From Escherichia phage JM10: a DNA stretch of 64,000 bases. Below the pieces are notes generated by a model. It searched no databases and was not told where the DNA came from. It saw nothing but the letters and a program-made list of their open reading frames with translations. A program made the translations under genes and the position numbers. This document shows, one piece after another, positions 13,888 through 32,050 of the stretch. The stretch lies in the sequence record PP400777; one strand, written 5' to 3'. Position 1 is the first letter of the stretch, and each line of letters begins with the position of its first letter.

Positions 13888-13998
13888 TCATTTTACCATA
13901 CTCGCTTCAATAAGATTCATTACACCATTTACCATGTTATACGTAAACATCGGATAATTGTATTGTATCACAACGTATACGATAAGCAAAAGTTTCAT
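13888..13998 (-). CDS. possible small hydrophobic peptide (36 aa)
   Basis: ATG with GGAGA RBS just downstream of the 14027-14056 promoter; below the ORF-track cutoff. Confidence 0.2.
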   Translation of the reverse strand: MKLLLIVYVVIQYNYPMFTYNMVNGVMNLIEASMVK

Positions 13999-14026
13999 TT
14001 TGTTCTCCATTTGTTTTGGTAGGACT

Positions 14027-14056
14027 ACTATAACATAGTCCTACCAAGTTGTAAAC
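14027..14056 (-). promoter_or_regulatory. T4-type early promoter inside a PeSL-like cassette
   Basis: GTTTAC + 18 nt + TGtTATAGT; palindromic TAGGACTA..TAGTCCTA core. Confidence 0.5.
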
Positions 14057-14289
14057 TACCGATTGTGTTTTAAATGTTGATAAAGTTCTTCAACTTGTTT
14101 AGGGTCCAAAACAATTAAGTCATTTTCTTGACGAAGATAAATCCATCCCTTATCCCCAGGACCATTTTTACAAAACATCACCACCATATCATCATCTTTA
14201 GCGCTTTCAGGTAAAAGTTCAAGTACACCGTCTTCAGATTTTCCAGTATAATCGTAAAGCATAATATCCTCACATAATCTCGTTAACAT
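14056..14289 (-). CDS. hypothetical small protein
   Basis: 77-aa acidic ORF. Confidence 0.35.
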   Translation of the reverse strand: MLTRLCEDIMLYDYTGKSEDGVLELLPESAKDDDMVVMFCKNGPGDKGWIYLRQENDLIVLDPKQVEELYQHLKHNR

Positions 14290-14449
14290 ACATTTGCAAT
14301 TCGGTGTGGGCGTCAGCCATCTTTTTCATAGCTCTGTTAATGTCGATGTCTCCATCTTCGCAACCATGAGCATTTTCCCAATCAGATACCGCATTAGCGT
14401 ACTCTTCAATCAAAAACATTAACTTAGAAATTTTTTCTTTACGTGACAT
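14270..14449 (-). CDS. hypothetical small protein
   Basis: 59 aa from MSRKEK with GGAGAA RBS. Confidence 0.35.
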   Translation of the reverse strand: MSRKEKISKLMFLIEEYANAVSDWENAHGCEDGDIDINRAMKKMADAHTELQMYVNEIM

Positions 14450-14476
14450 AACGTTCTCCTCTAGTAAGTAAGGTTT

Positions 14477-14505
14477 ACTATAACACAACCTGAGGAGAAG
14501 TAAAC
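14477..14505 (-). promoter_or_regulatory. T4-type early promoter
   Basis: GTTTACttctcctcaggttgtgtTATAGT. Confidence 0.45.
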
Positions 14506-14516
14506 TGATAGATGCC

Positions 14517-14544
14517 AAAAAGCCCCAACCTTTCGGAAGGGGCT
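14517..14544 (-). terminator. rho-independent terminator hairpin (repeat copy A)
   Basis: minus-strand AGCCCCTTCCGAAAGGTTGGGGCT followed by a T-run; downstream of rI. Confidence 0.55.
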
Positions 14545-14550
14545 AGTAAA

Positions 14551-14853
14551 TTAGATAGATGTAGGCTCTAATTTTATTTTCATGAACTCAGCAAATTGTC
14601 TGGCAGTTTTTATGCCTTGTTCATGACATTCAAATGCATCATCACAGGGGCTATTTTTGTAATGCTTTGCCATATACTTATAGAATTTTTCAGAATTCTC
14701 GACATTTTGAATTTCAAACAAAGTATATACGTTTTTAATCCCTGATTCCATAAAGTTATCAAAATATGGGTCGATATATGCAGTACCAACGATAGGAGTT
14801 GTTGCTGCAAAAAACCACAGCATCGCCATGACAGCTATCGCTCTTAAGGCCAT
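14551..14853 (-). CDS. rI: lysis inhibition regulator RI (antiholin)
   Basis: signal-anchor N-terminus; FMESGI..PC..FEC motifs match my recall of T4 RI. Confidence 0.75.
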   Translation of the reverse strand: MALRAIAVMAMLWFFAATTPIVGTAYIDPYFDNFMESGIKNVYTLFEIQNVENSEKFYKYMAKHYKNSPCDDAFECHEQGIKTARQFAEFMKIKLEPTSI

Positions 14854-14865
14854 ATAGGCCTCCTG

Positions 14866-15078
14866 TTAATTTTGGCCAGTATTTATTTTTCGCCTTTGGA
14901 CGGCCTTAACATCTGTGAGGTATTTTTCCAGCTTGCGCTTGCGTGTATAATCAGCTTTAGAACCAGTTTGACGGATATCCTCGTTTAAATGAGAAATAGA
15001 ATGTCCTAATTCTCTTCGGATTTCATCCAATTGGGTTACAGTAAGATTACGAAGTTGTCTTTCGTTTAATTGCTGCAT
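14866..15078 (-). CDS. hypothetical small protein
   Basis: 70-aa basic ORF between tk and rI. Confidence 0.4.
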
Positions 15079-15105
15079 ATATACCTCTTGGTTAGATATT
15101 AGTAT

Positions 15106-15687
15106 TTATAACAACCCTGTCAAATCATTCCAATGCTTCCGGCATAATGACACGTATCTATCGGTATCACCAATTTCAATTTGACTGCCATCTGTAATTG
15201 GAAGTCCGTCTTCCGTGACTCTAGCTACCATTGTGGCCTTTTTACCGCAATGACAGACACCTTTAAGTTCAACAAGCTTATCGGCAATAGCCATTAATGC
15301 TTGAGAACCTTCAAATAGATTACCTTTAAAATCTGTTCGTAGTCCATATGCCATTACCGGCACATTGTATACGTCAACAATACGACTAAGTTGATACACC
15401 TTTTCAGTAGTTAAGAACTGAGCTTCGTCAACAAATACACAATGAATATCCTTTTGTGCTGCAGCCCATTTATAGAATTCAAAGATATCCATGTCTTTTG
15501 TAATTATATTGGCATCCTGACGAATACCAATACGAGAGACTATTTCACCTTTTGAATCACGAGTATCAATAGCCGGTTTAAGAACTAATACACCCATGCC
15601 ACGTTCTTTATAGTTATGTGCGGCAGTAAGTAATGAAGCAGACTTACCGGCGTTCATAGCGGCATATGTAAAAATTAAACTAGCCAT
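15106..15687 (-). CDS. tk: thymidine kinase
   Basis: 193 aa; P-loop NAGKSASLL; C-terminal Cys pairs. Confidence 0.9.
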   Translation of the reverse strand: MASLIFTYAAMNAGKSASLLTAAHNYKERGMGVLVLKPAIDTRDSKGEIVSRIGIRQDANIITKDMDIFEFYKWAAAQKDIHCVFVDEAQFLTTEKVYQLSRIVDVYNVPVMAYGLRTDFKGNLFEGSQALMAIADKLVELKGVCHCGKKATMVARVTEDGLPITDGSQIEIGDTDRYVSLCRKHWNDLTGLL

Positions 15688-15696
15688 AAGAGTCCC

Positions 15697-15879
15697 TTAT
15701 AGTGAATTCACGTAGTCAATGAGTTCTTGTTCTTTCCTGTCAAATGATTCCATCAATGCGTGATATTCTTCGTCCGTCAAAGGAGCATATTCATCGTACG
15801 CATTGGTGGCTGCTTGTTCATCCAATAGGTCATGGATAAGTTCGAACAGTTTAGCTTTCTCTTCTTTAGTTAATTTCAT
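15697..15879 (-). CDS. hypothetical small acidic protein
   Basis: 60-aa ORF. Confidence 0.35.
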   Translation of the reverse strand: MKLTKEEKAKLFELIHDLLDEQAATNAYDEYAPLTDEEYHALMESFDRKEQELIDYVNSL

Positions 15880-16370
15880 TTAGGTTCCAAATCAACAATC
15901 ACAATTTCTAGTTTAGTGGAATACGTATCTAAAATCTCTTCGATGACATCCCAGTTTCCACCACCAATACCTGCACCAATTCTTGGCATATAAATTACAG
16001 GCTTTGTTATCTTATTCTTTCCGAATTCATTTAATTCTATTATACAATTCATTAAAGCAGAGTACTCAAAATTAGGTCCCGGCTCAAACTGTGTATAAAG
16101 ATTAAAGCAATAAGCTTTATGGGTCTTAAAATATTTTTCATAAACCGAATAAGACCCGAGTTTAGACTCATCTCCGAATTCGGTTTGAAGTTTATCGGCT
16201 TCCAGAATTTTTGGATAAGCCTTTGCTAATTGTCCTGCTACACCAGCGCCCATTGTATGAAAACAATTACACCCATGCGCAATATTATTACCTTTAGAAA
16301 ACAGGGCGACAATATCGCCCTTGATATAGTTTTTAATCACTTGCTGCAAGTCCTCTAGTATAAGAGTCAA
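15876..16370 (-). CDS. macro-domain-like protein (possible ADP-ribose binding/hydrolase)
   Basis: GCNCFHTMGAGVAGQL and IGAGIGGG glycine-rich motifs resemble macro-domain loops. Confidence 0.4.
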   Translation of the reverse strand: MTLILEDLQQVIKNYIKGDIVALFSKGNNIAHGCNCFHTMGAGVAGQLAKAYPKILEADKLQTEFGDESKLGSYSVYEKYFKTHKAYCFNLYTQFEPGPNFEYSALMNCIIELNEFGKNKITKPVIYMPRIGAGIGGGNWDVIEEILDTYSTKLEIVIVDLEPK

Positions 16371-16680
16371 CTAGGCGGTCCACCATAGAATTGCATGCTG
16401 CCTTATCTTTAGGTTCCGCCACCGAGCATTCTAATATTTGCCATTTTTTATAGTATCTTTTAATTAAGGTAGACGCCTTGAACCTACTAGACGCCCCATC
16501 TTTTTCTCCGTCTTTATACGCATATAACAATTTTTGTGAAAAATCTACTTTACACTCTTGACTTTTACCACAATAATCAGACGCCGTTCTGTTTGTATAC
16601 TCCGTTACATCAGTATATGTAGTATTAGCAAGAGCGTTAAATGAAACCAAGCCAACTATTAAAGCCAACATTTTGGTCAT
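16333..16680 (-). CDS. secreted protein
   Basis: N-terminal signal-peptide-like MTKMLALIVGLVSFNALA. Confidence 0.4.
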   Translation of the reverse strand: MTKMLALIVGLVSFNALANTTYTDVTEYTNRTASDYCGKSQECKVDFSQKLLYAYKDGEKDGASSRFKASTLIKRYYKKWQILECSVAEPKDKAACNSMVDRLVDSYTRGLAASD

Positions 16681-17219
16681 TCTTTTATTTCCAGTAGTTT
16701 ATTTGATTTAAGGTAATTAGCCTTTTCTAGGACTTCAGAAGCATATTTACTTCCAGCACTTGTCTTCCATCCTGCATTATATGAGGATATAGCTTTTCTT
16801 ATATCCCCGTTATGTATATTTAACCAATAAGAAAATTCGATATAAGCCCATCTGGCTGAATTAGACCGCTTAGATAGCATTTTCTTAATTTGGGCATCAG
16901 TCATATTATAACCAAGCTGGTTAATTCTTGCCCTCATTGTCGGTAGATAATTTTGGAACATTCCATACGCATGGTGACCTTTCTTATCTTTAAGATTAAT
17001 ACCGGCAGATGATTCCTGCCATAGTATTGCGGCCATTATGTATCCAAGTCCTTTCTTATGCATATTTTCATGCGTTTTAAATTTTCCGTCCTTAGAAAAC
17101 TGTTCCCCAAACTGATAAGCATAATTCAAGTTATCGAGTTGGACATTACTAAAAGTATGCTCGGAGCTATGTGCTGATAATGAAAGAGCAAATAGACCAG
17201 CGAGTAGTGCTTTTCTCAT
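16677..17219 (-). CDS. secreted lytic transglycosylase-like protein
   Basis: signal peptide; WQESS and SYNAGW motifs typical of SLT domains. Confidence 0.5.
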   Translation of the reverse strand: MRKALLAGLFALSLSAHSSEHTFSNVQLDNLNYAYQFGEQFSKDGKFKTHENMHKKGLGYIMAAILWQESSAGINLKDKKGHHAYGMFQNYLPTMRARINQLGYNMTDAQIKKMLSKRSNSARWAYIEFSYWLNIHNGDIRKAISSYNAGWKTSAGSKYASEVLEKANYLKSNKLLEIKE

Positions 17220-17227
17220 GTTTACCT

Positions 17228-17686
17228 CTAGATTTTAATCACTGCTTTAGAAGCTTTTCCTGGTAGTCGTTTATTGTTAATAATAGCCATTCTGCATTGA
17301 AGAGACTTCATTTTGAATGCTGGATTTTCGCGACAAACTGTAAGTCCTAACCAAAGATTTCCATCAGTTATTTCTAAACGGCCTGGGCGATATTCGACAC
17401 CTTCGACAAAATCTTCATCAACATCTGGACGTGCCGGCATTGATAAAAATTCTGCAACTTCTTTAACATGATTTTTTACTTTATGAAATAATTCAAAAAC
17501 GTAATTCTCATCTATTTCTCTCTGGATGGCACGATCTAAGAGATGTTGAGAATACTTGATATGAAAGCCTGGTAGTCCAAGAGACTTTGCAGCATCTTTT
17601 ATACTGGCATTTATTTTGCGGAACTCCGTTTCAAAGATTCGACGGAGTTTATTACGGCGGATAAAAACGTCTGAATTGATAGTCAT
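17228..17686 (-). CDS. regB: RegB site-specific endoribonuclease
   Basis: 152 aa; close match to my recall of T4 RegB. Confidence 0.85.
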   Translation of the reverse strand: MTINSDVFIRRNKLRRIFETEFRKINASIKDAAKSLGLPGFHIKYSQHLLDRAIQREIDENYVFELFHKVKNHVKEVAEFLSMPARPDVDEDFVEGVEYRPGRLEITDGNLWLGLTVCRENPAFKMKSLQCRMAIINNKRLPGKASKAVIKI

Positions 17687-17714
17687 TTTGATTTCTCCTC
17701 TAGTTGACAGGTCT

Positions 17715-17743
17715 ATAGTAACACAACTAGAGGAGAAGTAAAC
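17715..17743 (-). promoter_or_regulatory. T4-type early promoter upstream of regB
   Basis: GTTTACttctcctctagttgtgtTACTAT. Confidence 0.45.
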
Positions 17744-17747
17744 TACT

Positions 17748-17963
17748 TTATTGATAAAATGGAGTTAAAGCCCAAGATTCTTTAGATACTATATTGGCGA
17801 AATGCCTCATCTCTTCGATTTGGCGACGACGCTGGTCAGCATAGTCTTCTTCGCCTTCTTCCTTACAATCTTCAAGGTCTTCTTCAAGATACTTTAAGTA
17901 TTCACTACAAATTTTGTTGACCTTTTCTTGAAAGTCCAATAACCCAGTAATAGTAGAAGCCAT
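17748..17963 (-). CDS. hypothetical small acidic protein (vs.3 position)
   Basis: 71-aa ORF. Confidence 0.4.
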   Translation of the reverse strand: MASTITGLLDFQEKVNKICSEYLKYLEEDLEDCKEEGEEDYADQRRRQIEEMRHFANIVSKESWALTPFYQ

Positions 17964-18239
17964 TAGTATTTTTCCTCAGGTCGAAATACTGCACGACATG
18001 CCCACATGCTGGCTTCTTTTAGATGTTGCTTAGCATACTTAAGAGCCTGCACTGCATCCATATCTTCTTTGGTTTGTTGCTCTGTTTCATTTTCTTTCAA
18101 GATATATGCTTCTTCAATCAGAGCATCAAACAACAATCCAAGACGGACTTCGGCATCTTTAATAGCGTTCACTTTACCGATTTTATCATCGGTATGCGGC
18201 TTGTAGCCTTTGATGTCTTCAATCGACATAAGGAATTTC
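17963..18239 (-). CDS. Acb2-like protein (T4 vs.4 position); candidate cyclic-nucleotide sponge
   Basis: 92 aa from MSIEDIK; position and size match T4 vs.4; assignment from recall only. Confidence 0.4.
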
Positions 18240-18443
18240 CTCATCAGTGGCAAGGTCATATTCGACCAATTGGATAGGCTCATTAATACCATATCCACGT
18301 ACAGTGATATCAGTTGACGGATATTTTCCAGTAATATCACCCGTTCTAAATGCTTCAATGAATGATTGCTCGCCTGAGCAACTAAACCAGGCGGCAAAAC
18401 ATTTTAAAACATCTTCAGACCCTTCTATAATCAATTTAGCCAT
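18219..18443 (-). CDS. hypothetical small protein
   Basis: 74-aa ORF. Confidence 0.4.
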   Translation of the reverse strand: MAKLIIEGSEDVLKCFAAWFSCSGEQSFIEAFRTGDITGKYPSTDITVRGYGINEPIQLVEYDLATDEEIPYVD

Positions 18444-18805
18444 TATAGACTCTCAGTAAAGGTACGAGCGATAACGTCGCGCTGCTGTTCCGGAGTCAGA
18501 GAGTTAAAGCGAACTGCATAACCGGATACACGGATGGTCAGCTGCGGATATTTTTCCGGATGCTTAACTGCATCTTCCAGAGTTTCACGACGCAGAACGT
18601 TAACGTTCAGATGTTGACCACCTTCAATTTTAACTTTAGGTTGATGTTCAATTTCAATTTCACGGGCATGCAAACCGTAGAAAATTTCCGGGTCTACAAT
18701 AGCGTCTTCTTTAAAAGTCTTAGAGACAATAATCCGGGCTTGAGTACCGTCTTCAAAATAAATAGTGCCTTTATGCGCACCTTCAAGAATTTGATATGCT
18801 TTCAT
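18443..18805 (-). CDS. autonomous glycyl-radical cofactor (GrcA/YfiD-like)
   Basis: C-terminal [25 protein letters not shown] is the pyruvate formate-lyase glycyl-radical signature. Confidence 0.75.
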
Positions 18806-18811
18806 ATAACC

Positions 18812-19183
18812 TCAATTAGAAAATAAATTTATCCAAGTTTTTTCTTTAATCAAAAATGGGTCGGAATTAAACGCCATTAAACTTTGAGTGATTAATCCCT
18901 TAAATGGCCCATCAATAAATTCCATTTTGAAATGCGGAATACTAGTCATCAACCGTGCATTAGGAGCAGTACAAAGAACCTGCTGCCCTGCGAACGGACC
19001 TTTAGTCAAACGATATCGTTTAGGTTTAAAATGGTAAATCTCGTAATTTTCTACAAGAGCCCTTTTATTGCATACTGGGCTGTTATAACAATATTCAAAA
19101 ACTTCAATAGTGGTCATCATTGCATTCCAATCACAAAAAATTGAGGACGAGCAATACCGCCGATGCAATATTTGCTTTTGCAA
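18812..19183 (-). CDS. hypothetical protein
   Basis: 123-aa ORF. Confidence 0.4.
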   Translation of the reverse strand: MQKQILHRRYCSSSIFCDWNAMMTTIEVFEYCYNSPVCNKRALVENYEIYHFKPKRYRLTKGPFAGQQVLCTAPNARLMTSIPHFKMEFIDGPFKGLITQSLMAFNSDPFLIKEKTWINLFSN

Positions 19184-19656
19184 CAGTGTTGGACTGTTTT
19201 AATATGGACATTGTAAATCTTATCCATATCAGGAGCTTTAATAGGCTCGTCAATTATGTACAGAATACGAGAAAGCGTTAATCCACGGAATTTAGAACCT
19301 TCATTGCCAATAAAACTACGAACAGAATCAGTAAATAAACGGAATCGAATATCATCGCTAGAATAACGAGAAAATTCTTTTTTAATGTTGCCAGCAGAAA
19401 TTTTAGCATAAGCTGAAGTATTAGAAAGAACAATAACAGTTCCGCCATCATACAACCAATTAGCAGCGAAGTTAGTCACAGCAATTGATTTACCTGATTG
19501 TCTGCCGCCGTCTAAACGAAGTGTACAGTACTGCTTGAGTACATCTTCAAATGGTGGGACATAACCGTTCTTACAAATTTCTTCTACTCTAGCATCAGAA
19601 TGGTGTGTAAAAGCATTCATCAGGGATAGATAAGGTCCAGTTAAAAATGTTCTCAT
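19117..19656 (-). CDS. hypothetical protein
   Basis: 179-aa ORF; start uncertain because of overlap with 18812..19183. Confidence 0.4.
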   Translation of the reverse strand: MRTFLTGPYLSLMNAFTHHSDARVEEICKNGYVPPFEDVLKQYCTLRLDGGRQSGKSIAVTNFAANWLYDGGTVIVLSNTSAYAKISAGNIKKEFSRYSSDDIRFRLFTDSVRSFIGNEGSKFRGLTLSRILYIIDEPIKAPDMDKIYNVHIKTVQHCCKSKYCIGGIARPQFFVIGMQ

Positions 19657-19769
19657 TTAGTTTCTCTTTTAGGTTGGGCCATTCCGTGGCGCATGAATTG
19701 TCCATTTCTGTATTTACCCCTCCAAGTAATTATGAATATACTATCACAATTCTAGGAGAAAGTAAACTG

Positions 19770-20072
19770 TTATTTACCTTTAATTACTTTAGCTGCTTCG
19801 ATAGCCGCTTGCTGAAGGTCATCCATAGACATACCGAATTTAGAAGCAAAGTTATCAATTTTCTTTTCGACAGCATTCAAAGGCTTTGCCTGTTTACCTT
19901 CATTAGCGCCAGGAAGAGCGAGAATACGCTCTTTGTCAATATAAAGGCTTACAAGTTTCTTACGGTCTTTATCGGACAAATCATGAAATGAATGGGCCTT
20001 TTTATTTATAGCGGCTTCTAATTTACCTGCACTCACTCGCGCTTCAGTAATAAATTCTTGATAGGTTTTCAT
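19770..20072 (-). CDS. ipII: internal protein (IpII-like) with capsid-targeting sequence
   Basis: N-terminal MKTYQEFITEA is the T4 capsid-targeting sequence (CTS); 100 aa. Confidence 0.6.
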   Translation of the reverse strand: MKTYQEFITEARVSAGKLEAAINKKAHSFHDLSDKDRKKLVSLYIDKERILALPGANEGKQAKPLNAVEKKIDNFASKFGMSMDDLQQAAIEAAKVIKGK

Positions 20073-20100
20073 GTGTTTCCTTGTTTGTTTTGATAGAGTA

Positions 20101-20130
20101 ATTATACCATATTAATACTTAAGCGTAAAC
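20101..20130 (-). promoter_or_regulatory. T4-type early promoter
   Basis: GTTTAC + 18 nt + TGgTATAAT. Confidence 0.5.
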
Positions 20131-20210
20131 CGTTTAAGCTTTACCGCCAGAAATAATTCCGAAGTTGTTAAAATCATATCCAATATCGTCAACATCTACT
20201 TTAGGACTTG

Positions 20211-20396: not shown

Positions 20397-20563
20397 TTTT
20401 CCTTAGTAAATTGATTTACCAAAGTATTTGTACCAAGTCGGGCGTTGAGCAATTTTTTATCTAAGCGTGCTTGACTTATCGCAATGGACGCTTCGGACGG
20501 GTCATAATTTCCTCCAAGTAGTTGATGAATGTATAGTATCAAAACCCTTGGAGGAAGTAAACA

Positions 20564-21330: not shown

Positions 21331-21364
21331 AATACCTCCCACGTTTATAGGAGGTATTTATTAC

Positions 21365-23223: not shown

Positions 23224-23224
23224 A

Positions 23225-23530
23225 TTATTTTCCTCGGCATTCTTTAATGAAATTTTCTAGATTGGTAGATTCAATAGCTTTTTTACGAGCTTCTGCGTGT
23301 TCTTCTTCGGACAATTTACATTTATAATTGACCCAGACATTATGGTCAAAACTAGTCGTGGCATATAATAACAAAGCTCCGACGAATAATAAAAACGGTG
23401 ATAAGAATACAAAACCAGGAACACCATCCATACTGTAAGCCTTTTGTAATACTGCAACAGAAAGAGCTACGTAAAAAGGTGTTGCAAATATTGTAAAAAG
23501 ACCGATTCGATTGGTTTCGCCTAATTTCAT
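23225..23530 (-). CDS. membrane protein
   Basis: 101 aa; two hydrophobic helices. Confidence 0.4.
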   Translation of the reverse strand: MKLGETNRIGLFTIFATPFYVALSVAVLQKAYSMDGVPGFVFLSPFLLFVGALLLYATTSFDHNVWVNYKCKLSEEEHAEARKKAIESTNLENFIKECRGK

Positions 23531-23558
23531 AATATTCTCCTCATGTTTTAATAGGACT

Positions 23559-23588
23559 ACTATAACATAGTCCTATAATTGTGTAAAC
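23559..23588 (-). promoter_or_regulatory. T4-type early promoter in a PeSL-like cassette
   Basis: GTTTAC + 18 nt + TGtTATAGT with palindromic TAGGACTA core. Confidence 0.5.
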
Positions 23589-23600
23589 AGTTTTGCGAAA

Positions 23601-24557: not shown

Positions 24558-24625
24558 AATATTTTCCTCGGATTAATTCATTAACTTAAATTTCACGACA
24601 TGCGATATCATATTCATCCCAGAGG

Positions 24626-24838
24626 TCATCGTGTGAAGCCTCTACCAATGGAACGATTGTACCCGTTTATGTCTTCATTATAAGGGCAAATTGTACAGTG
24701 CGCATCTTCGAATCGGATGCCTTTATGTTCAGATTTTTTATAACGCATATCGAATATCTTTGCAAACTTTTCACGAGTAATGGTTTTAGCAACCACTTTG
24801 GTTCCGATACTTTCGTAATAAATCATTGTGGACTCCAT
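24626..24838 (-). CDS. hypothetical small protein
   Basis: 70-aa ORF. Confidence 0.35.
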   Translation of the reverse strand: MESTMIYYESIGTKVVAKTITREKFAKIFDMRYKKSEHKGIRFEDAHCTICPYNEDINGYNRSIGRGFTR

Positions 24839-24854
24839 TTAATTTGATAGAACT

Positions 24855-24884
24855 ACTATAACATAGCCCTATCTTGTTGTAAAC
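24855..24884 (-). promoter_or_regulatory. T4-type early promoter in a PeSL-like cassette
   Basis: GTTTAC + 18 nt + TATAGT-type -10. Confidence 0.45.
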
Positions 24885-24888
24885 TGTT

Positions 24889-25086
24889 TTAGCAAGAATA
24901 ACTAGATGATACCCAGCCTTGAACAGTAATACTATTATTTGATAACGAGATTGCGTCCTGGAGATTCAGACCTGCGTTATCTTCAATCCATAATATAACT
25001 TCTTCGCGTTCTTCTGTTGCAATTTGGAACAGGTTTTCCAGAGCAGCTACTGCCGTACGTACAGCGCAATCTAATTCACGAGACAT
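24889..25086 (-). CDS. small protein, paralog 1 of the C-terminal GWVxSSxxC family
   Basis: ends ..QGWVSSSYSC. Confidence 0.45.
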   Translation of the reverse strand: MSRELDCAVRTAVAALENLFQIATEEREEVILWIEDNAGLNLQDAISLSNNSITVQGWVSSSYSC

Positions 25087-25095
25087 ATGATTTCC

Positions 25096-25368
25096 TTAAC
25101 AAGTGTGAGAAGACGCGACCCAACCACCAGTTTCGAGGCTAAGGTTGTAGTCGTATTGGTAAACGTCAGCCCATTCAGCATAGCCGTTTTTTGTACAACG
25201 TTCAAGATCGGCTTTAAGATGTCCGGGTGAATGATAGGTTCCACCCATACCATAAGCTGGGTACAAGTCGAATGTTGTGTTTTGTTTATCAGCAATTTCT
25301 TTGGCAGCCTCAATAGCTGCATAGATTTTTGCTACAGCTTCAGCCAGTTCGGTTTGTTCTTTAGACAT
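25096..25368 (-). CDS. small protein, paralog 2 of the C-terminal GWVxSSxxC family
   Basis: ends ..GGWVASSHTC. Confidence 0.5.
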   Translation of the reverse strand: MSKEQTELAEAVAKIYAAIEAAKEIADKQNTTFDLYPAYGMGGTYHSPGHLKADLERCTKNGYAEWADVYQYDYNLSLETGGWVASSHTC

Positions 25369-25377
25369 AATGATTCC

Positions 25378-25683
25378 TTAGCACAACGCAGAAGACGAAA
25401 CCCAAGCACCTTCAGTAATAACGTAACCATTACCTTCACGCTTAACATCGCCACCATTATTTTCAATTTCATTTTTCATCCACTGGGATACGATTTCACC
25501 CTTAGGATAATAAGTACGACCGCTACCATAATCACCTACAGAAAATGATACGGCATATTGGTCTGCGATCTTTGTTGCTTCTTCTTCGATACGTTCAGCT
25601 TGATTCAGAAGTTTATAAATTGCATCTGAAGCGGATTTGGCATCATTAAACTCTGGTACTTTAATTTCAATAATCTTACTCAT
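25378..25683 (-). CDS. small protein, paralog 3 of the C-terminal GWVxSSxxC family
   Basis: ends ..GAWVSSSALC; shares MSK start and internal motifs with paralog 2. Confidence 0.5.
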   Translation of the reverse strand: MSKIIEIKVPEFNDAKSASDAIYKLLNQAERIEEEATKIADQYAVSFSVGDYGSGRTYYPKGEIVSQWMKNEIENNGGDVKREGNGYVITEGAWVSSSALC

Positions 25684-26039
25684 TTTCTACATTCCTTAAT
25701 AAAGTTTTCGATTGTTTCATTTTCACGTCTAGCTAGGAGTTCATTATAACTAATCATTTGAGAAGCGTAAACCTTTTTATTTTTCTTGTTATGGTTTATA
25801 AAATCGTAGTAAAAATAGACTACAGTACAAAATGATGCGATGGATGCAAAGGCTTGGGTATACCGTAAGTCCTGCCATTGGTCTGTGAATCCACCAGTGT
25901 TCCCTATAAATCCTAACACAACGCCGTCAATAAGAAATCCAACTAATCCAAAGGCAAATCCCATGCCAATACTCATAATAAAAATTAGAATGTTCTCACC
26001 AAGAGAAGGCCATACGGTTAAGAGTTGAGGCTTTTGCAT
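25680..26039 (-). CDS. membrane protein
   Basis: 119 aa; hydrophobic helices. Confidence 0.4.
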   Translation of the reverse strand: MQKPQLLTVWPSLGENILIFIMSIGMGFAFGLVGFLIDGVVLGFIGNTGGFTDQWQDLRYTQAFASIASFCTVVYFYYDFINHNKKNKKVYASQMISYNELLARRENETIENFIKECRK

Positions 26040-26443
26040 CTTATTTCCTTAACGAATTCCATAGCTTCTTCATATTCATACTTTTTAACAGCTTCATCAT
26101 ACTGAGCTTGGGCTTTTGCGCACTGAACTTTCCATTCTCTTAATCGGGCTCTGTGATGACGACCTTGGTGCCAATATCCTACCCAATTAATAGGCATTAA
26201 TAAAAATGGTACAATAAACGACCCGGCTATAATAAGTAAAAACACTGCATCAGACGATATAACTTCACTAGAATCTAAAACAGCTCCTATAATCATAAAG
26301 ATTAAAAATGCTAAAGCTAAAATAGGGCCAAATAGTACTTCATTTGGAATTAATTTACGCTTGTATTCATACGCCAAGGGTTTAATTGGCATGTACAGGG
26401 TTGGCTTTGACATATTCTCTACATTCCATAATAAATTGCTCAA
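26018..26443 (-). CDS. membrane protein
   Basis: 141 aa; hydrophobic helices. Confidence 0.4.
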   Translation of the reverse strand: MSNLLWNVENMSKPTLYMPIKPLAYEYKRKLIPNEVLFGPILALAFLIFMIIGAVLDSSEVISSDAVFLLIIAGSFIVPFLLMPINWVGYWHQGRHHRARLREWKVQCAKAQAQYDEAVKKYEYEEAMEFVKEIRCKSLNS

Positions 26444-26999
26444 GGATTAAATTGTTAGTGAAATTAGGACTAACAACCATGGTTTCATAAAGCGCATCAA
26501 TAGCACTTAAAGCATCAACTCTTTTAAGCAAAGGCTTGCCTTCATACATAGTTTCAGAATCGATGATTAACGTAAAGTAATATTTTTTATTATCGACTAG
26601 AACTTCTGTATCGATATAAAACATATTAGACCTCAGAAGCTTATCTCTAAAACCATAATAATCTTCAGAGCGTTCGCTGATATATTCCAATTCAGTGTTT
26701 AAACAACAAACAGACCATGTAGGAGCAACGAAATCAGTGAATCTAATATCATGGTCTGCAACTAGTTTAGCAATAGCTCCGATATCATGAATCATAATAC
26801 CTGGGGCTAATAAAGATTTTCGGTGATTTGCATATTCAGTTGTCTCATAAGAAGACGACCAGTACCATTTACGTCCAGTTGCAACATATCGTAATGAATC
26901 AACTAAAGACGTAGGTGGATTTACCTTATCTCGGAACTCTTCGAACATTGAGTCAATATCATTATTTTGGTTTCGCATGTTAACTCCTTTATTATCCAA
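26382..26999 (-). CDS. hypothetical protein
   Basis: 205-aa ORF. Confidence 0.45.
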   Translation of the reverse strand: MDNKGVNMRNQNNDIDSMFEEFRDKVNPPTSLVDSLRYVATGRKWYWSSSYETTEYANHRKSLLAPGIMIHDIGAIAKLVADHDIRFTDFVAPTWSVCCLNTELEYISERSEDYYGFRDKLLRSNMFYIDTEVLVDNKKYYFTLIIDSETMYEGKPLLKRVDALSAIDALYETMVVSPNFTNNLILEQFIMECREYVKANPVHAN

Positions 27000-27027
27000 A
27001 AGGAGGACCGGAGTCCTCCGTATTATT

Positions 27028-27621
27028 TTATTTCAAAGAGTTAATATATTCTTGTACATCAGCAGAAGTGGTTTCTACACCAGCTGGAGTGCCATTGAAC
27101 GTTTCAACACGAGTCAGAGTGTCTTCGATATCAACCTTAGTCAGTGCAGCGATTTCAATTACATCATCAGCCGTAGAGATACCAAGGGCATTGGCTGCTC
27201 GAGTTTCACGAATGTATTCGAGTTTGATTGCCAGGTTCTGACGAGCATCGTCAAGTTCAACCACCTTACGAGCAATTTCAATTCGCATAGCGGCATACCC
27301 ATCAGCTTTTGTATTAAGTTGTTCGGCAGTTCTACGATACAGAAGACCAAGCTTAGCATGCATGGTAACATCTTGTCCTTCAGCCAGGAGCTTACGAATT
27401 TCACGTTCCTTAGAAGCGGCTTGCTTGTTCTTTTCATTAACAAGTTCGCGAATACGTTTTTCTTCATTAATAGATTTAACAGAAGCCGTTTTTAGTTCTT
27501 TGATTTGGGTAATCAACTTATCTGCAGCTGCGTTATACTGTTCTTCGACAGTCAGATTTTTAGCCATAGCAGTACCAAGTTTAGTGCGGATGAATTCGAC
27601 AAGTTTCTTCAGTGTGTTCAT
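27028..27621 (-). CDS. coiled-coil protein
   Basis: about 197 aa from MNTLKK; long helical K/E/R-rich region. Confidence 0.4.
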
Positions 27622-27691
27622 ATTATTACCTTTCAATTGGTGGTTTATTATCCAACGAGAGCATTATACTCTGCTCTCAAGAGTTTGTAAA

Positions 27692-27919
27692 TTATTTTTT
27701 AATCAAATTGACATAAAACTTGGCGTCTTCGGGGTGCATGCCTTCGCAGTATTCTTCAACCATGAACTTCTTAACAGCTTCATAAGGACCACTCAGATTA
27801 AGCTCAGTTGTCCAGAACTTGGAATCTTGGACTGAATCGATACGAACTTCAGGGTGTCGGTTGCGAATAACTTCTTCGGTGTATTCATAATCAACGACAT
27901 CAATACTAACTTTAGCCAT
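27692..27919 (-). CDS. hypothetical small protein
   Basis: 75-aa ORF. Confidence 0.4.
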   Translation of the reverse strand: MAKVSIDVVDYEYTEEVIRNRHPEVRIDSVQDSKFWTTELNLSGPYEAVKKFMVEEYCEGMHPEDAKFYVNLIKK

Positions 27920-27947
27920 TTTGTGTTCCTCGTATTTTGATAGGACT

Positions 27948-27977
27948 ACTATAACATAAACTTACTTAGATGTAAAT
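27948..27977 (-). promoter_or_regulatory. early promoter variant in a PeSL-like cassette (ATTTAC -35)
   Basis: ATTTAC + 18 nt + TATAGT. Confidence 0.4.
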
Positions 27978-28130
27978 TATTTCAACGTCACCTTTAGCTG
28001 CTTTATAACCTTCGGCCCAAGATACAACAGAGTTTTTATCTGAGGATTCAAATTCAGGCATTGGACTTTCACCAATATTCACACAGTATGTTTCTTCATT
28101 TTCATCGAACCAAATAATTAAAGTAGTCAT
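27966..28130 (-). CDS. possible small protein (54 aa)
   Basis: ATG with AGGAG RBS; below the ORF-track cutoff. Confidence 0.25.
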   Translation of the reverse strand: MTTLIIWFDENEETYCVNIGESPMPEFESSDKNSVVSWAEGYKAAKGDVEIIYI

Positions 28131-28198
28131 TTTGTTTACTCCTCTGTAGTTGATAAGTCTATAGTATCACCGTCCTTGGTGCTTGTACATCATTATTT

Positions 28199-28504
28199 TT
28201 AATTTTTCCAACTTAACAACTTGTAGTGTCCTTCATTCATACGTGGTTTATCCCAAGAAATACTAATATATGATTCACCGTCAATAGAAGTCGCCGGGTT
28301 TTTCTCTACCGTAAGACCTTCACTTTCCAGCCATTCGATAGTATTTGCGCATAAATCAGAAGAACACCTCATCGGGAACCGGCAAGATTTTTCACCTTTA
28401 GCTGCAGTGTTATACATCTTTTCTAAAATACGCTTTTGCACGTTTTTAAAAATAGTTTCAGCAGATTCTTCAGATTTTTTATTCAGTTCAGTGTAAAGAC
28501 TCAT
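28199..28504 (-). CDS. hypothetical protein
   Basis: 101-aa ORF downstream of an early promoter. Confidence 0.4.
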   Translation of the reverse strand: MSLYTELNKKSEESAETIFKNVQKRILEKMYNTAAKGEKSCRFPMRCSSDLCANTIEWLESEGLTVEKNPATSIDGESYISISWDKPRMNEGHYKLLSWKN

Positions 28505-28532
28505 AATATTTTCCTCTGTGGTTGATAAGTCT

Positions 28533-28561
28533 ATAATATCATGTCCTTAGAAGAAGTAAAC
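28533..28561 (-). promoter_or_regulatory. T4-type early promoter
   Basis: GTTTACttcttctaaggacatgaTATTAT. Confidence 0.5.
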
Positions 28562-28595
28562 AACTTTATGAAATATTTTTATGCCCTAGATACCA

Positions 28596-28621
28596 AAAAG
28601 CCCCAACCATAAGGAAGGGGC
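28596..28621 (-). terminator. rho-independent terminator hairpin (repeat copy B, variant loop)
   Basis: GCCCCTTCCTTATGGTTGGGGC + T-run on minus strand. Confidence 0.5.
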
Positions 28622-28627
28622 ATTCTA

Positions 28628-29092
28628 TTATTTAATTTGTTTAGCAGACCAGATACGGTCTTTAATAAGTTTTTGGATATCTTCAACATACTCAAGGCTA
28701 TGAGCGTGAGGATTATCTTTGAAGCTATGTGCTCGTGCCAGTTTCTGGCCTTCTGTTTTGATTACTAAAAGCTCTTTAAGAATTGCTTCATACTTAGAAA
28801 TAATTCCTTTGGCGATATTTTTTTCTTGAGCTGCTTTAGGGTCTGCTTTTGGCGCAGGTGCTTTACCTGTAGCTTTCTGGAACAATTCACCTGATGCAGC
28901 TAGGCTTTTAAAAACTCGGCTAACAGTATTAGCATTAGTAAAACCTTCGGCTTTAAAATCTCTAATAAAACGGAAACGTTCTTCATCAGAGGCGTCTTTG
29001 TAAGAATATTTACCTGCTTGAATTGCTGCAATCGCAGCGGCTTTTACATCTGAACTAGATTGTTCAGTCAAAAATTCAGCGTATGATTTCAT
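28628..29092 (-). CDS. CTS-tagged candidate internal protein
   Basis: MKSYAEFLTE resembles the T4 capsid-targeting sequence; 154 aa. Confidence 0.5.
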   Translation of the reverse strand: MKSYAEFLTEQSSSDVKAAAIAAIQAGKYSYKDASDEERFRFIRDFKAEGFTNANTVSRVFKSLAASGELFQKATGKAPAPKADPKAAQEKNIAKGIISKYEAILKELLVIKTEGQKLARAHSFKDNPHAHSLEYVEDIQKLIKDRIWSAKQIK

Positions 29093-29137
29093 GTTGCTTT
29101 TCCTAAGTTAATTAACTTATCTATTTATTATTATGCC

Positions 29138-29164
29138 AAAAAGCCCCAACCTTTCGGAAGGGGC
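29138..29164 (-). terminator. rho-independent terminator hairpin (repeat copy C) ending the tRNA unit
   Basis: AGCCCCTTCCGAAAGGTTGGGGCT + TTTTT on minus strand. Confidence 0.55.
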
Positions 29165-29207
29165 TATATACCTTGTCGGGGTTCCACCTGCTAAGGCAAG
29201 TGTTTGT

Positions 29208-29299
29208 ACGAAACGCCGGGATTCGAACCCGGTTATTAAGCAGTTGACGCTACTCAATATTTTTAAAAGGCCATATCTCGACCATATCCGAACGTTCCG
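29208..29299 (-). ncRNA. tRNA-like RNA (92 nt) with canonical T-arm and acceptor stem but non-canonical core
   Basis: acceptor CGGAACG/CGTTTCG (one G-U); T-arm CCGGG-TTCGAAT-CCCGG; D and anticodon arms not resolvable by eye. Confidence 0.35.
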
Positions 29300-29472
29300 T
29301 CAAAAACGCTACTCGGCTTACGGCAAAGATATTTCCTCGAATCGATAATTCGGTGCGCCGTTTCTGCTGTGATGTAAGGGGATATTAACAAATCATAAAG
29401 ATTTATTAAGACCAGTCCTTACTCAGGGAACATCAGTCCGACGACTTACCGGTAGCGACCCGGCTTCTTATT

Positions 29473-29549
29473 TGGTCGAGGCAGAAGGATTCTAACCTTC
29501 AACCTACGGATTAGAAATCCGTTGCTCTATACAATTGAGCTATGCCTCG
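29473..29549 (-). tRNA. tRNA-Arg (anticodon UCU), CCA encoded
   Basis: hand-folded cloverleaf: acceptor CGAGGCA/TGCCTCG, D-stem GCTC/GAGC, anticodon stem ACGGA/TCCGT, loop TTTCTAA, T-arm GAAGG-TTAGAAT-CCTTC. Confidence 0.75.
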
Positions 29550-29555
29550 AATATA

Positions 29556-29629
29556 TGACCCAGACCAGATTCGAACTGGTAACCTTTCCCTTATGAGGGG
29601 ACTGCTGCTAACCATTGAGCTACAGGGCC
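29556..29629 (-). tRNA. tRNA with CAU anticodon (Met or Ile2-type)
   Basis: hand-folded: acceptor GGCCCTG/CTGGGTC (one mismatch), anticodon loop CTCATAA, T-arm ACCAG-TTCGAAT-CTGGT; 6 nt from tRNA-Arg. Confidence 0.65.
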
Positions 29630-29750
29630 TAAATAACTTTCTATTATGAAAGGCACTTTAGAGTACCTTTGGTAATAGAGGGTATGAATTAATAATAACA
29701 CATAATTCTTAAAGCAAATCAATCATTTTAACAGTTGGCAAAACGATTTC

Positions 29751-30035
29751 TCACCATATTTTGTATGTGTTCTGAATGCAATCAAGTCCTAAAGGATTCT
29801 TGAAAATATCATATTCAAGAGGGCCTTTTTCTGTTTCAATAAAGAAATCAAAGTTCACTGTATTAAATTTACGGTCTTCCCATAGTAATTTGACCTGTGA
29901 AGACGAACGGTCGATATAAACCTTTTCAACCTCAAAGTTAGTCAGAATACCGTAGTCATTAACTAGTGCTTTAGCTGCACGTTGATCGCTTTCGTATCCA
30001 TTCTCAACGGATTTTACCTTAGCGTAAAGAATCAT
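29751..30035 (-). CDS. hypothetical protein
   Basis: 94-aa ORF. Confidence 0.4.
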   Translation of the reverse strand: MILYAKVKSVENGYESDQRAAKALVNDYGILTNFEVEKVYIDRSSSQVKLLWEDRKFNTVNFDFFIETEKGPLEYDIFKNPLGLDCIQNTYKIW

Positions 30036-30394
30036 GAATGTTCCACCATTTCAAAGGTATGAGCATCAACAATATGATACCAGTCAAAATTTTCTTCTGC
30101 GTTTTTATAAATTTCGCGAAGAGCCTCAACAGTTTTTCCTGTAGCAACAAGGTCGTCAATACCGCCAAGAGGATAACAGTCATAACCAGCAAACAGAAGG
30201 AAATTAATAGTTTCTGTAGGTTCTGGATGCAGAACACCGTTATCGTCTACCACTTCAAAGAAAGTGTAAGAAGGAGTACAAGTTTTAATCCAAGCCCATG
30301 CTTGAGCCGCTGAATCAAATGGTCTGCGTATCAAACGACAATCAGGGTCTTTAGAAGGATTTGCTTCAAAATCCGCATATACGTGATATTTCAT
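30032..30394 (-). CDS. hypothetical protein
   Basis: about 120 aa from MKYHVY. Confidence 0.4.
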   Translation of the reverse strand: MKYHVYADFEANPSKDPDCRLIRRPFDSAAQAWAWIKTCTPSYTFFEVVDDNGVLHPEPTETINFLLFAGYDCYPLGGIDDLVATGKTVEALREIYKNAEENFDWYHIVDAHTFEMVEHS

Positions 30395-30395
30395 T

Positions 30396-30602
30396 TTACT
30401 CACCTTTTGCAATTTTATCCATAACGATAGCGATTAAGCCGATTAGAAATGCTACTACCAACGAGATAGAGTTTTCAGTTGTTGTCAGTAGTCCACAAAT
30501 GAATCCTACAAACATCGAAAAACTAAAAGCCATTGAAGCAATTACTACAGCAACATTACGAATCAGTTCAGCGCGTTTCATTTTATTTCTCCATTTACTC
30601 AT
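30396..30602 (-). CDS. small membrane protein
   Basis: 68 aa; two hydrophobic helices. Confidence 0.35.
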   Translation of the reverse strand: MSKWRNKMKRAELIRNVAVVIASMAFSFSMFVGFICGLLTTTENSISLVVAFLIGLIAIVMDKIAKGE

Positions 30603-30650
30603 TTGTTTTGATAGGACTACTATAACATAGCCCTATAGGCTTGTATACCT

Positions 30651-30914
30651 TTATTTCAAATATATTGCGTATTTTTTATAGCCACCAGGCTCGTGTCGAA
30701 GACCTTTATCATTCGCAAAACGTTGAATGTTATTGAACTGATTTTCATCAAGTTCGGATGTGTCAAATATGAAAAAGTTTCGTTTGTTACCAAGCGTGAT
30801 ATGCGGAGTTAAGTCAATGTTATACAAATTAAGAATATCAGCAATAACCTGATTGACCGCTTTGTTAATTTTCACACCAGACGATTCTGAGATGAATTCG
30901 TTGAAAGTTTTCAT
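30651..30914 (-). CDS. CTS-tagged candidate internal protein
   Basis: MKTFNEFISE CTS from the internal Met. Confidence 0.5.
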   Translation of the reverse strand: MKTFNEFISESSGVKINKAVNQVIADILNLYNIDLTPHITLGNKRNFFIFDTSELDENQFNNIQRFANDKGLRHEPGGYKKYAIYLK

Positions 30915-30946
30915 TTTAGGTTCCATTTGGTTGTTTTGATAGGACT

Positions 30947-30976
30947 ACTATAACATAGTCCTACCATGATGTAAAC
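30947..30976 (-). promoter_or_regulatory. T4-type early promoter in a PeSL-like cassette
   Basis: GTTTAC + 18 nt + TGtTATAGT; TAGGACTA..TAGTCCTA palindrome. Confidence 0.5.
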
Positions 30977-31287
30977 TATTTTATGCCTTTAGATGAAATA
31001 GTATTCTGGCGTTTGACCCCAGTTTGTGAAAAATCATGGTTATCAATTTGGTCAACTCGCATAACACCAAATGCGGATTTAATTTTGGCTTTTGAACCTT
31101 TTTTGATACTAATTATCATATAAGTATCATTTTTCTTATATTCGAAATTTGTTACTTCAACGCCTTGATTAGAAATTGACTTAATAATAGCATTAGCGTA
31201 TTCATCATCTAACGGACCGGTGGTGTTAATAATAAAATTTTTATCGGCTTTAGTAGCTTCAGCGATAAACTCTTGATAGGTTTTCAT
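30976..31287 (-). CDS. CTS-tagged internal protein at the ipI locus
   Basis: MKTYQEFIAEA CTS; 103 aa; immediately downstream of 57B as ipI is in T4. Confidence 0.55.
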   Translation of the reverse strand: MKTYQEFIAEATKADKNFIINTTGPLDDEYANAIIKSISNQGVEVTNFEYKKNDTYMIISIKKGSKAKIKSAFGVMRVDQIDNHDFSQTGVKRQNTISSKGIK

Positions 31288-31364
31288 TTTATTTCCTTGA
31301 GGTTGTTTATTTGATAGGATGATAGTAACACACCATCATCCTTATGTAAACTGTTTTGTGAAAA

Positions 31365-32050
<686 letters not shown>

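Follow-up and report, generated by a model that had tools for sequence, protein, structure and literature searches.

What do the inverted repeats do in which a T4-type phage sets many of its early promoters? The question arises in Escherichia phage JM10 (sequence record PP400777), of which one strand was analysed over 64,000 nucleotides; this whole stretch is called the window below. In its leftward-transcribed part, a promoter-like block, hereafter the cassette, recurs again and again ahead of small genes. The original prediction, made from the letters of the window, had seen in these blocks the promoter early stem-loop (PeSL) cassettes described in T4-type phages as drivers of modular gene shuffling. 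We consider it rather probable that the cassettes represent the early promoters, of the T4 type, in a Mosigvirus, placed for the most part in inverted repeats, that the repeats of one class (class B) would close read-through RNA to translation, that those of another (class A) would mark a boundary, and that the cassettes provide homology for recombination.

Comparison of positions 13000 to 32000 with phage genomes gave ~160 matches at 95-99% identity, the best of them with Escherichia phages AV118, FL18 and SF and with Shigella phage Shf125875 and its relatives, of the genus Mosigvirus (type RB69). By these matches, the window belongs to a Mosigvirus, i.e. an RB69-like coliphage of the T4 family. 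Its first 34 kb are transcribed leftward, from nrdH to 57B, and are followed by rightward baseplate genes. The leftward region corresponds to the T4 region with gene 55.x and nrdH, nrdC, tk, regB, denV, e, the tRNAs, the internal-protein genes and 57B. Over most cassette sites, AV118, FL18 and Shf125875 are collinear with the window. An Rfam search detected no family at the cassettes and reported two tRNAs only.

At least seven near-identical copies of the block had been predicted. Six of them hold: the 24-mer TAGGACTACTATAACATAGTCCTA was found, with up to 3 mismatches, at 14020, 23552, 24848, 27941, 30612 and 30940, and not once in 100 shuffles. The copy near 31310 groups with them in repeat family D2 but is only 63% identical, and it carries another palindrome, AGGATGAT/ATCATCCT, in the corresponding position. 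Read on the minus strand, all the copies have the composition that had been proposed: GTTTAC or a variant with one mismatch, then 17-18 nt of spacer with TGn at its end, then a -10 element that is TATAGT, TACTAT or TATTAT. The pattern GTTTAC-N14/15-TGN-TANNNT (that is, GTTTAC-N17/18-TGnTAnnnT) has 16 exact matches against 0.14 expected, 16 of 16 being on the minus strand, which is the coding one. With a weight matrix derived from the copies, 24-25 minus-strand sites were retrieved between 131 and 31351, compared with 0-1 on the plus strand and ~0.4 in shuffled sequences. A second family (GTTTACTTCTCCTC...) had also been noticed and is present, with -35 elements that start on the minus strand at 14505, 17743, 19767 and 20562. 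The extent first given, 13990 to 31345, does hold cassettes but the series runs well further to the left, with additional ones at 833, 5664, 7048, ~8028, 9669, 11145 and 11423. From 0.8 to 31.4 kb, a cassette is thus located ahead of roughly every third or fourth leftward gene.

The -35 elements are preceded by A-rich sequence, and a Shine-Dalgarno (SD) sequence and a start codon lie directly downstream of the cassettes. Every element of the T4 early-promoter consensus given in the Hinton review (UP, -35, TGn and -10) is present in them, and a typical early promoter is known for regB of T4. RB69 harbours the same cassettes at orthologous positions, and orthologous sites are also present in T4. 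Because of their presence in RB69 and of the collinearity of the window with its relatives, the cassettes are not assembly artefacts, a concern that had been raised with the prediction. In RB69, 57 early promoters have been predicted, with a preference for C at -3 to -1 (Nolan et al. 2006, PMC1524935); the cassettes are of the same class, at orthologous sites, and their ...CCTA discriminator resembles this preference. Stems, palindromes and hairpins are mentioned 0 times in that paper, and the T4 GenBank records contain no promoter features. Based on sequence and orthology, the cassettes are very likely T4-type early promoters, and the geometry of these promoters predicts transcription starts ~7 nt after the -10.

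We folded the minus-strand RNA of the cassettes from the -35 to the start codon; structures and SD accessibilities are predictions throughout. Hairpins bracketing the -10 were obtained in 12-13 of ~20 cassettes, and in 13 of 20 the duplex between the spacer and the downstream sequence reached -9.5 kcal/mol or lower. The individual fold z-scores range from -4.3 to -5.7. For the non-redundant cassettes of the window and related phages, the mean fold was -12.5 kcal/mol, versus -7.1 kcal/mol for same-length random sense-strand segments (p=7e-10). The partners are specific: spacers paired with their own post--10 regions gave -10.6 kcal/mol, as against -7.35 kcal/mol with the regions of other cassettes (0/20000 permutations, p<5e-5). 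The same swap test with 41 distinct cassettes located downstream of 57B in 33 T4-like phage contigs yielded -8.6 versus -5.7 (p<5e-5). We used such protein-anchored loci, as an IMG/VR pattern in which the arms were left free returned only 4 DNA stretches. At the 57B/internal-protein locus, about ten or more unrelated arm sequences occur at one position. At orthologous promoters, the arms of T4 differ from those of the window yet are complementary (AGTTGACAAGATT/AATCTTGTCAACT in T4 versus TTGGTAGGACTA/TAGTCCTACCAA in the window), and the T4 ipI promoter has the arms GATGAGGTA/TACCTCATC. The conserved property is pairing, not sequence, which excludes a common protein operator and simple shared ancestry as the reason for the stems.

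The stems are of two types. In class B, to which 833, 14505, 17743 (regB), 19767, 20562 (denV) and, weakly, 28561 belong, a CTCC-type anti-SD that immediately follows the -35 is the pairing partner of the downstream gene's GGAG-type SD. Anti-SD tetramers were found in 5 of 20 spacers, versus 0.79 expected (P=0.0015). With a start ~7 nt after the -10, the cassette's own transcript would never include the 5' arm. It would retain the 3' arm only, and the regB and denV leaders are predicted to be unstructured in it, at 0 kcal/mol. In read-through RNA, a helix of 10-14 bp is predicted, with -19 to -22 kcal/mol. For the six class B cassettes, the SD has a probability of 0.25-0.76 of being unpaired in their own transcripts versus 0.03 or less in read-through RNA, i.e. 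a predicted 25-600-fold drop in accessibility, whereas the ratio is ~1 for the other cassettes. At most stem-bearing cassettes (9 of 20 overall), the stop codon of the upstream gene is located no more than ~4 nt from the -35. Since this leaves a terminator no space, read-through is expected.

We then compared the regB leaders of 33 viral and metagenomic contigs, whose RegB proteins are 56-99% identical to that of the window. The design is kept in every lineage, with an inner helix that varies: CTAGTTG/CAACTAG, CTTGACTG/CAGTTAAG, CTTTATG/CATAAAG, TGTAAG/CTTACA, TTTTAGT/ACTAAAA, TGTAG/CTACA or TCTCTG/CAGAGA. A plain MAFFT alignment of these leaders lost the register of the arms and was replaced by a gapless, SD-anchored alignment, in which 8 of the 14 pairs show changes in both partners. 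Its covariation score, 0.331, compares with 0.110 +/- 0.028 in shuffled controls (0/500) and 0.04-0.12 with slid partners. In read-through RNA, the SD-unpaired probability is at most 0.05 in 15 of 17 distinct regB leaders and in 26 of 27 distinct denV leaders, the medians for the own transcripts being 0.36-0.38. In some denV lineages, the -10/discriminator rather than the spacer provides the 5' arm, which is still upstream of the start. The same drop was found between 40 and 80 kb of T4 at four promoters, those of denV and regB and those at coordinates 53943 (nrdC.8) and 55384.

These features suggest how class B might operate. With the 5' arm upstream of +1, the hairpin would form only in RNA reading through from an upstream promoter. 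Such RNA would be closed to translation and its GGAG would be shielded from RegB, and the promoter-proximal transcript would be open. Translation of a class B gene would then last only as long as its own early promoter is firing. We see an even chance that a quarter to a third of the T4-type early promoters, namely 833, 14505, regB, 19767, denV and 28561, are 'own-promoter-only' translation switches of this kind, in which the anti-SD silences the gene and shields the GGAG in read-through RNA. RegB is known to be inhibited by secondary structure, and the SD of T4 denV is resistant to RegB in vivo, observations that fit the class B model. For the resistance of denV, an alternative cause has been published, namely the sequence 3' of the GGAG.

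A precedent exists in T4 for hairpins of this architecture. In the genes e, soc, 49, I-TevI, segB and mobE, a leader hairpin occludes the ribosome-binding site (RBS), and an internal late promoter gives rise to a short, translatable transcript; according to a 2010 review, the genes known to be regulated by such hairpins are all late. The gene e leader of the window itself harbours a classical SD-sequestering hairpin, with a late-promoter-like TATAAA in the 5' arm, and it served as the positive control for the class B architecture (-29.9 kcal/mol over a 111-nt region). Like the e-type hairpins, class B stems are predicted to pair the SD in transcripts from upstream promoters, and the transcript from the internal promoter would be devoid of the 5' arm. 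Unlike in the e-type, the internal promoter is of the early, sigma-70 type and not of the late, gp55 type (TATAAATA), and regB is an early gene. Class B is therefore a variant of the e-type device rather than a member of it. Translation would correspondingly fall in the earliest minutes, not at late times.

Class A comprises 9669, 14056, 23588, 24884, 30648, 30976 and 31351, i.e. the TAGGACTA/TAGTCCTA family and its variants. Here, the spacer from -35 to -10 contributes the 5' arm, and the discriminator forms the 3' arm, which ends at +1. Both arms being upstream of or at +1, neither would be part of the cassette's own transcript. In read-through RNA, the hairpin would be found at the end of the upstream cistron, where it would most likely act as a boundary element, be it an attenuator or a barrier to 3' decay. 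The promoter of nrdC.8 is of class A in the window (P9669) and of the SD-sequestering class B in T4 (coordinate 53943; GTTCCTCTG/CGGAGGAAC). Stem class can therefore switch during evolution. The cassettes of both classes are collected in Table 1, together with the stemless ones and the separate hairpins.

Table 1. Cassettes, leader hairpin and intrinsic terminators in the leftward region of the window. SD-unpaired probabilities are given as own transcript vs read-through RNA.
Feature	Type	Position (strand)	Sequence features	Predicted values	Remarks
P833	class B	774..833 (-)		SD unpaired 0.72 vs 0.02	outside the extent first predicted
P9669	class A	9611..9669 (-)	stem AGGTCTA/TAGACCT		
P11145	stemless	11076..11145 (-)			
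P11423	stemless	11364..11423 (-)			preceded by terminator hairpin 11451-11470
P14056	class A	13996..14056 (-)	-35 14051-14056; -10 TATAGT 14027-14032; stem CTTGGTAGGACTAT / TAGTCCTACCAAA around -10; SD GGAG; start codon probably 13998	fold -20.6 kcal/mol, z -5.7	downstream PHROG match from residue 5
P14505	class B	14447..14505 (-)	anti-SD CTTCTCCTC directly after -35; SD GAGGAG	SD unpaired 0.61 vs 0.00	
D8 copy 1	intrinsic terminator	14512..14545 (-)	GC stem, GAAA loop, T5		just upstream of P14505
P17743	class B	17684..17743 (-)	14-bp stem TTCTCCTCTAGTTG / CAACTAGAGGAGAA, encloses -10 and sequesters SD	fold -21.6 kcal/mol, z -4.9; own leader unstructured	regB promoter
P19767	class B	19703..19767 (-)	CTTTCTCC...GGAGGGG; inner stem GAATTGTGA/TCATAATT	SD unpaired 0.76 vs 0.03	
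P20130	no significant stem	20070..20130 (-)			drives internal-protein gene 19770-20072
P20562	class B	20503..20562 (-)	stem TTCCTCCAAG / CTTGGAGGAA	SD unpaired 0.36 vs 0.00; fold -19.1 kcal/mol, z -4.3	denV promoter; downstream gene is a truncated denV
Gene e leader hairpin	SD sequestration	21331..21358 (-)			
P23588	class A	23528..23588 (-)	perfect palindrome TAGGACTA/TAGTCCTA		
P24884	class A	24824..24884 (-)	arms TAGGGCTA/TAGTTCTA; two G.U wobbles, pairing on sense strand only		
P27977		27917..27977 (-)	3' arm TAGTCCTA, unrelated 5' arm		
P28190	stemless	28128..28190 (-)	weak -35 ATGTAC		flanks ORF 27966-28130 with P27977
P28561	class B, weak	28502..28561 (-)	TTCTTCT / AGAGGAA	SD unpaired 0.59 vs 0.01	
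D8 copy 2	intrinsic terminator	28590..28623 (-)			upstream of P28561
D8 copy 3	intrinsic terminator	29133..29166 (-)			34/34 identical to copy 1
P30648	class A	30579..30648 (-)	-35 GTATAC; one G.U wobble		internal-protein swap junction vs RB69 and Shf125875
P30976	class A	30912..30976 (-)		fold -16.9 kcal/mol, z -4.45	drives internal-protein gene 30651-30914
P31351	class A	31285..31351 (-)	differing stem AGGATGAT / ATCATCCT		drives internal-protein gene 30976-31287

The genes flanked by the cassettes had been called ORFans (ORF, open reading frame). The label is loosely right: all 10 of the 10 downstream proteins tested fall into PHROG families. Three of the proteins encoded downstream of cassettes belong to the internal head or virion proteins; regB and the denV remnant are driven by two other cassettes. 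This remnant has ~38 codons (20393-20562) and shows an in-frame deletion of 297 bp when compared with RB69, AV118 and Shf125875; a 13-bp overlap is present at 20497-20509, and the promoter and the SD hairpin are kept. FL18 seems to share the deletion, as a 141-nt 'endonuclease' is annotated at that site. The start codon that follows P19767 is uncertain. An ATG at 19705, after the GGAGGGG, opens a short ORF whose frame differs from that of the vs.8 homologue, which starts at 19656.

P27977 has a broken, probably chimeric stem. Chimeric cassettes with non-pairing arms, e.g. ATAGGGTA with TACCTCAT, were also found downstream of 57B in other T4-like phages (loci L058:2674, L063:2302 and L063:1969). 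They look like the products of crossovers within the -10 loop.

In kind, such cassettes are already known, and their identification as PeSLs is supported: promoter, stem-loop, SD and start codon, and intergenic position all match the published definition at the sequence level, and the location in an apparently hyperplastic region would fit it. The PeSLs of PST and T4 consist of a promoter TTTACW-N17-TAYWAT and stems of the form AGNA-loop-TCNT (Comeau, Arbiol & Krisch 2014, PMC4122927). The cassettes of the window share with them the T4-type promoter, AT-rich AGNA-loop-TCNT stems (AGGA...TCCT in family 1), an SD and ATG at the 3' end, presence at internal-protein loci and, apparently, clustering in hyperplastic regions and proximity to indels. 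They differ in that the genome is RB69-like and in that the stems straddle the -10, whereas the legend for PST places them just upstream of the promoter. Early-promoter/stem-loop elements at the internal-protein loci of T-even phages are attributed to Repoila et al. (1994, as cited in PMC2839356), and three family-1 cassettes of the window are found at such a locus (30579-31351).

The PeSLs of RB49 and phi1 have their stems mostly between -35 and -10 or overlapping the -10 (Arbiol 2010, PMC2839356). They resemble the cassettes of the window by their composite of promoter and stem-loop, by stem position, by the SD and ATG at the end, by the small ORFs that they flank and by crossovers within them, of which the window shows footprints. 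Unlike the window, RB49 has near-consensus sigma-70 promoters (TTGACA) and stems of G-runs and C-runs that were shown to terminate. The same authors considered the T-even elements as analogues and not homologues (PMC2839356). In both PeSL papers, the stems are read as terminators and possible recombination targets (PMC2839356, PMC4122927). Translation is discussed in neither of them, and the 2010 paper uses the words 'translation' and 'ribosome' 0 times (PMC2839356). Our finding thus appears to be a further instance of a published element, with class B alone going further than what has been published.

According to the original PeSL proposal, the stems are terminators or attenuators that stop read-through, and the cassette is a self-contained terminator-promoter unit. 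The stem-loop of an RB49 PeSL decreased lacZ expression in a transcriptional fusion about as much as rrnB T1 (Arbiol 2010, PMC2839356), but the RB49 stems tested are G4/C4-rich and unrelated in sequence to those of the window. The latter are AT-rich and followed by TCAAAACA or AAATCAAAATG, with no U-tract, and a terminator scan called none of the promoter-embedded stems. Judging from these features, the embedded stems are not canonical intrinsic terminators. The combination of a GC stem and a U-tract is present in separate hairpins (14512-14545, 28590-28623, 29133-29166 and 11451-11470), and it fits the notion of terminator-promoter units that such canonical terminators precede the cassettes 14505, 28561 and 11423. 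The embedded hairpins, too, would be completed in read-through RNA exactly at the end of the upstream cistron. Nevertheless, termination leaves unexplained why the SD forms the 3' arm in six cassettes, conserved with covariation at regB and denV. We consider this explanation unlikely, and for the embedded stems it was rejected on sequence features only.

The palindromes could also act as DNA, with hairpins or cruciforms in single-stranded or supercoiled molecules as preferred entry points of recombination, so that the stems would serve mobility. Crossovers inside the loop or beside the stem and mini-circles were detected in RB49 and phi1 (Arbiol 2010, PMC2839356); similarly, several junctions in the window are inside cassettes, and chimeric cassettes of two families exist. 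The folding asymmetry between sense and antisense strands, which is not significant, agrees with a role as DNA. Against it stand the internal non-Watson-Crick positions of 57 distinct stems, found by a strand-symmetric register search that scores Watson-Crick pairs only: 17 are G.T and 3 are A.C (binomial p=0.0013). Since the sense strand alone allows G.T as a wobble pair, this bias favours a sense RNA structure, and it is unexpected for a structure that is symmetric between the two strands of DNA. Furthermore, a role as DNA gives no reason for the pairing of the SD, and breakpoints are only weakly enriched over random gene junctions. Cruciform extrusion is poor for stems of 8-14 bp with loops of 6-25 nt. 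Altogether, we find it quite improbable that the stems serve as DNA structures, and there is moderate support for their action in sense RNA.

Stems without function, inherited by duplication of the cassettes or perfected by templated (quasi-palindrome) mutation and then tolerated, would account for the six near-identical family-1 copies, which could be recent, and for the third or so of promoters that are stemless. However, the arms vary among cassettes and are complementary within each, diverged phages have different complementary arms at orthologous promoters, and the covariation is above that of the shuffled and slid controls, which makes an absence of function very improbable. We give hardly any credence to the idea that TAGGACTA-N8-TAGTCCTA, centred on the -10, is the operator of a dimeric phage repressor aiding early-promoter shut-off: the 8-8-8 dyad over the -10 has classical operator geometry, with six near-identical copies in one genome, and the shut-off mechanism of T4 early promoters is described as not completely understood, but the sequence is found at only 6 of ~22 promoters, the others carry unrelated arms (AGGATGAT, AGGTCTA, CTCCTCTAGTTG, TTCCTCCAAG; at least six unrelated arm sequences in the window and yet others in T4), variants preserve pairing via G.U, 27977 has the 3' half without the 5' half, and the hypothesis was rejected on these differences between arms.

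The contribution of the cassettes to gene shuffling was analysed by comparing the window with AV118, RB69, FL18 and Shf125875, which revealed ~23 distinct events, indels or replacements, within the first 36 kb. AV118 is devoid of ORF 27966-28130 and P27977, the junction being between the SD and the ATG of the two flanking cassettes. Internal-protein genes are replaced from 30648 to 30888 in RB69 and from 30592 to 31265 in Shf125875; each of these swaps lies between a cassette and the point where the shared capsid-targeting codons end. In FL18, 596 additional bp are located at a 28-bp overlap within the repeated terminator (14517-14544; D8 copy 1). ORF 28631-29092, which has no Pfam match, is bracketed by D8 copies 2 and 3 and is replaced in RB69 and FL18, and in Shf125875 a replacement of vs.3 begins 4 nt upstream of the regB -35. 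The blocks of homology with T4 end at 17743, 20082, 30592 and 31266. Of 7 genes with a cassette on either side, 4 are variable, versus 14 of 69 other genes (Fisher p=0.05). The values for gene variability are p=0.03 with a promoter downstream and p=0.14 with the gene's own promoter upstream.

Thus, the cassettes probably serve as crossover sites, and the proposed role of 'driver' has modest support: several junctions do lie inside cassettes, but their enrichment over random gene junctions is weak. An enrichment of breakpoints that was strong against a whole-sequence null vanished against a gene-junction null, and we do not claim it. As dispersed repeats of 60-100 bp, the cassettes would supply the homology to add, remove or swap the small genes between them. 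At the internal-protein genes, shared capsid-targeting codons would lengthen this homology.

The capsid-targeting sequence (MKTYQEFI or MKTFNEFI; repeat families D6 and D14) opens five small genes, at 19770-20072, 20211-20396, 20564-20845, 30651-30914 and 30976-31287. Three of these five genes were compared with PHROGs, and they code for internal head or virion proteins. The swap junctions with RB69 and Shf125875 at 20043, 30888 and 31265 are located at the end of this shared N-terminus. The capsid-targeting sequence therefore extends the recombination homology of the cassettes.

Some of the events are unrelated to the cassettes, namely a homing-endonuclease insert, the insertion of ORF 11478-11789 and changes in the tRNA region. 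The nrdD gene is in two parts, N-terminal (4363-4905) and C-terminal (2046-3236), separated by a 1047-bp insert. The insert harbours a GIY-YIG/NUMOD1 homing-endonuclease ORF (3352-4119) and is ~84% identical to, and collinear with, the nrdD intron/I-TevII region of T4. It is missing in RB69 and Shf125875, and a scan with Rfam gathering thresholds reported no group I intron. ORF 11478-11789 codes for 93 residues with no Pfam match and is present in none of four Mosigvirus relatives. It is inserted exactly between the stop codon of the upstream gene and the terminator hairpin 11451-11470, with a 5-bp microhomology, and is without a promoter of its own.

Several points weigh against our interpretation of the cassettes as early promoters with stems that act in read-through RNA and with a part in recombination. 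All the structures and SD accessibilities on which it draws are predicted. In 7 of 20 cassettes (e.g. 20130, 11145, 11423 and 28190), there is no stem; with about a third of the cassettes stemless, the stem is not required for promoter function. P14505 retains its class B stem though an intrinsic terminator is located just upstream. The alignment of the regB leaders was anchored on SD/anti-SD pairs found by folding, which favours the outer pairs. The advantage of sense-strand folding is 1.5 kcal/mol for the cassettes and 0.7 for control segments, a non-significant difference (p=0.08), and the case for RNA over DNA rests mainly on the G.T/A.C count, which related stems or strand-biased mutation could inflate. 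The role of class A is purely inferred. About half of the 23 events touch a cassette or its terminator, compared with ~45% expected for two-ended events at random gene junctions, by a hand estimate with a cassette at about a quarter of the junctions. Finally, searches of the accessible literature returned no account of RBS-sequestering hairpins at early promoters, but older T4 papers, beyond their scope, may have one.

For annotation, this work provides a map of ~22 early promoters and several terminators in the genome. The map also marks small genes that are in exchangeable cassettes, notably the internal-protein genes, which encode injected anti-defence proteins. If class B stems do act as proposed, gene control by a hairpin and an internal promoter, so far documented for late genes only, would extend to the early class. 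The stems of PeSLs would have to be reinterpreted as translational insulators rather than terminators or recombination sites, and their covariation would be explained independently of any role in recombination. A compact design would also become available for synthetic operons, in which a gene responds solely to the nearest promoter. For the phage, the synthesis of RegB, DenV and other class B products would be confined to the first minutes of infection. Class B cassettes would then represent a gene-by-gene timing device in the early control of T4, where early shut-off remains incompletely explained.

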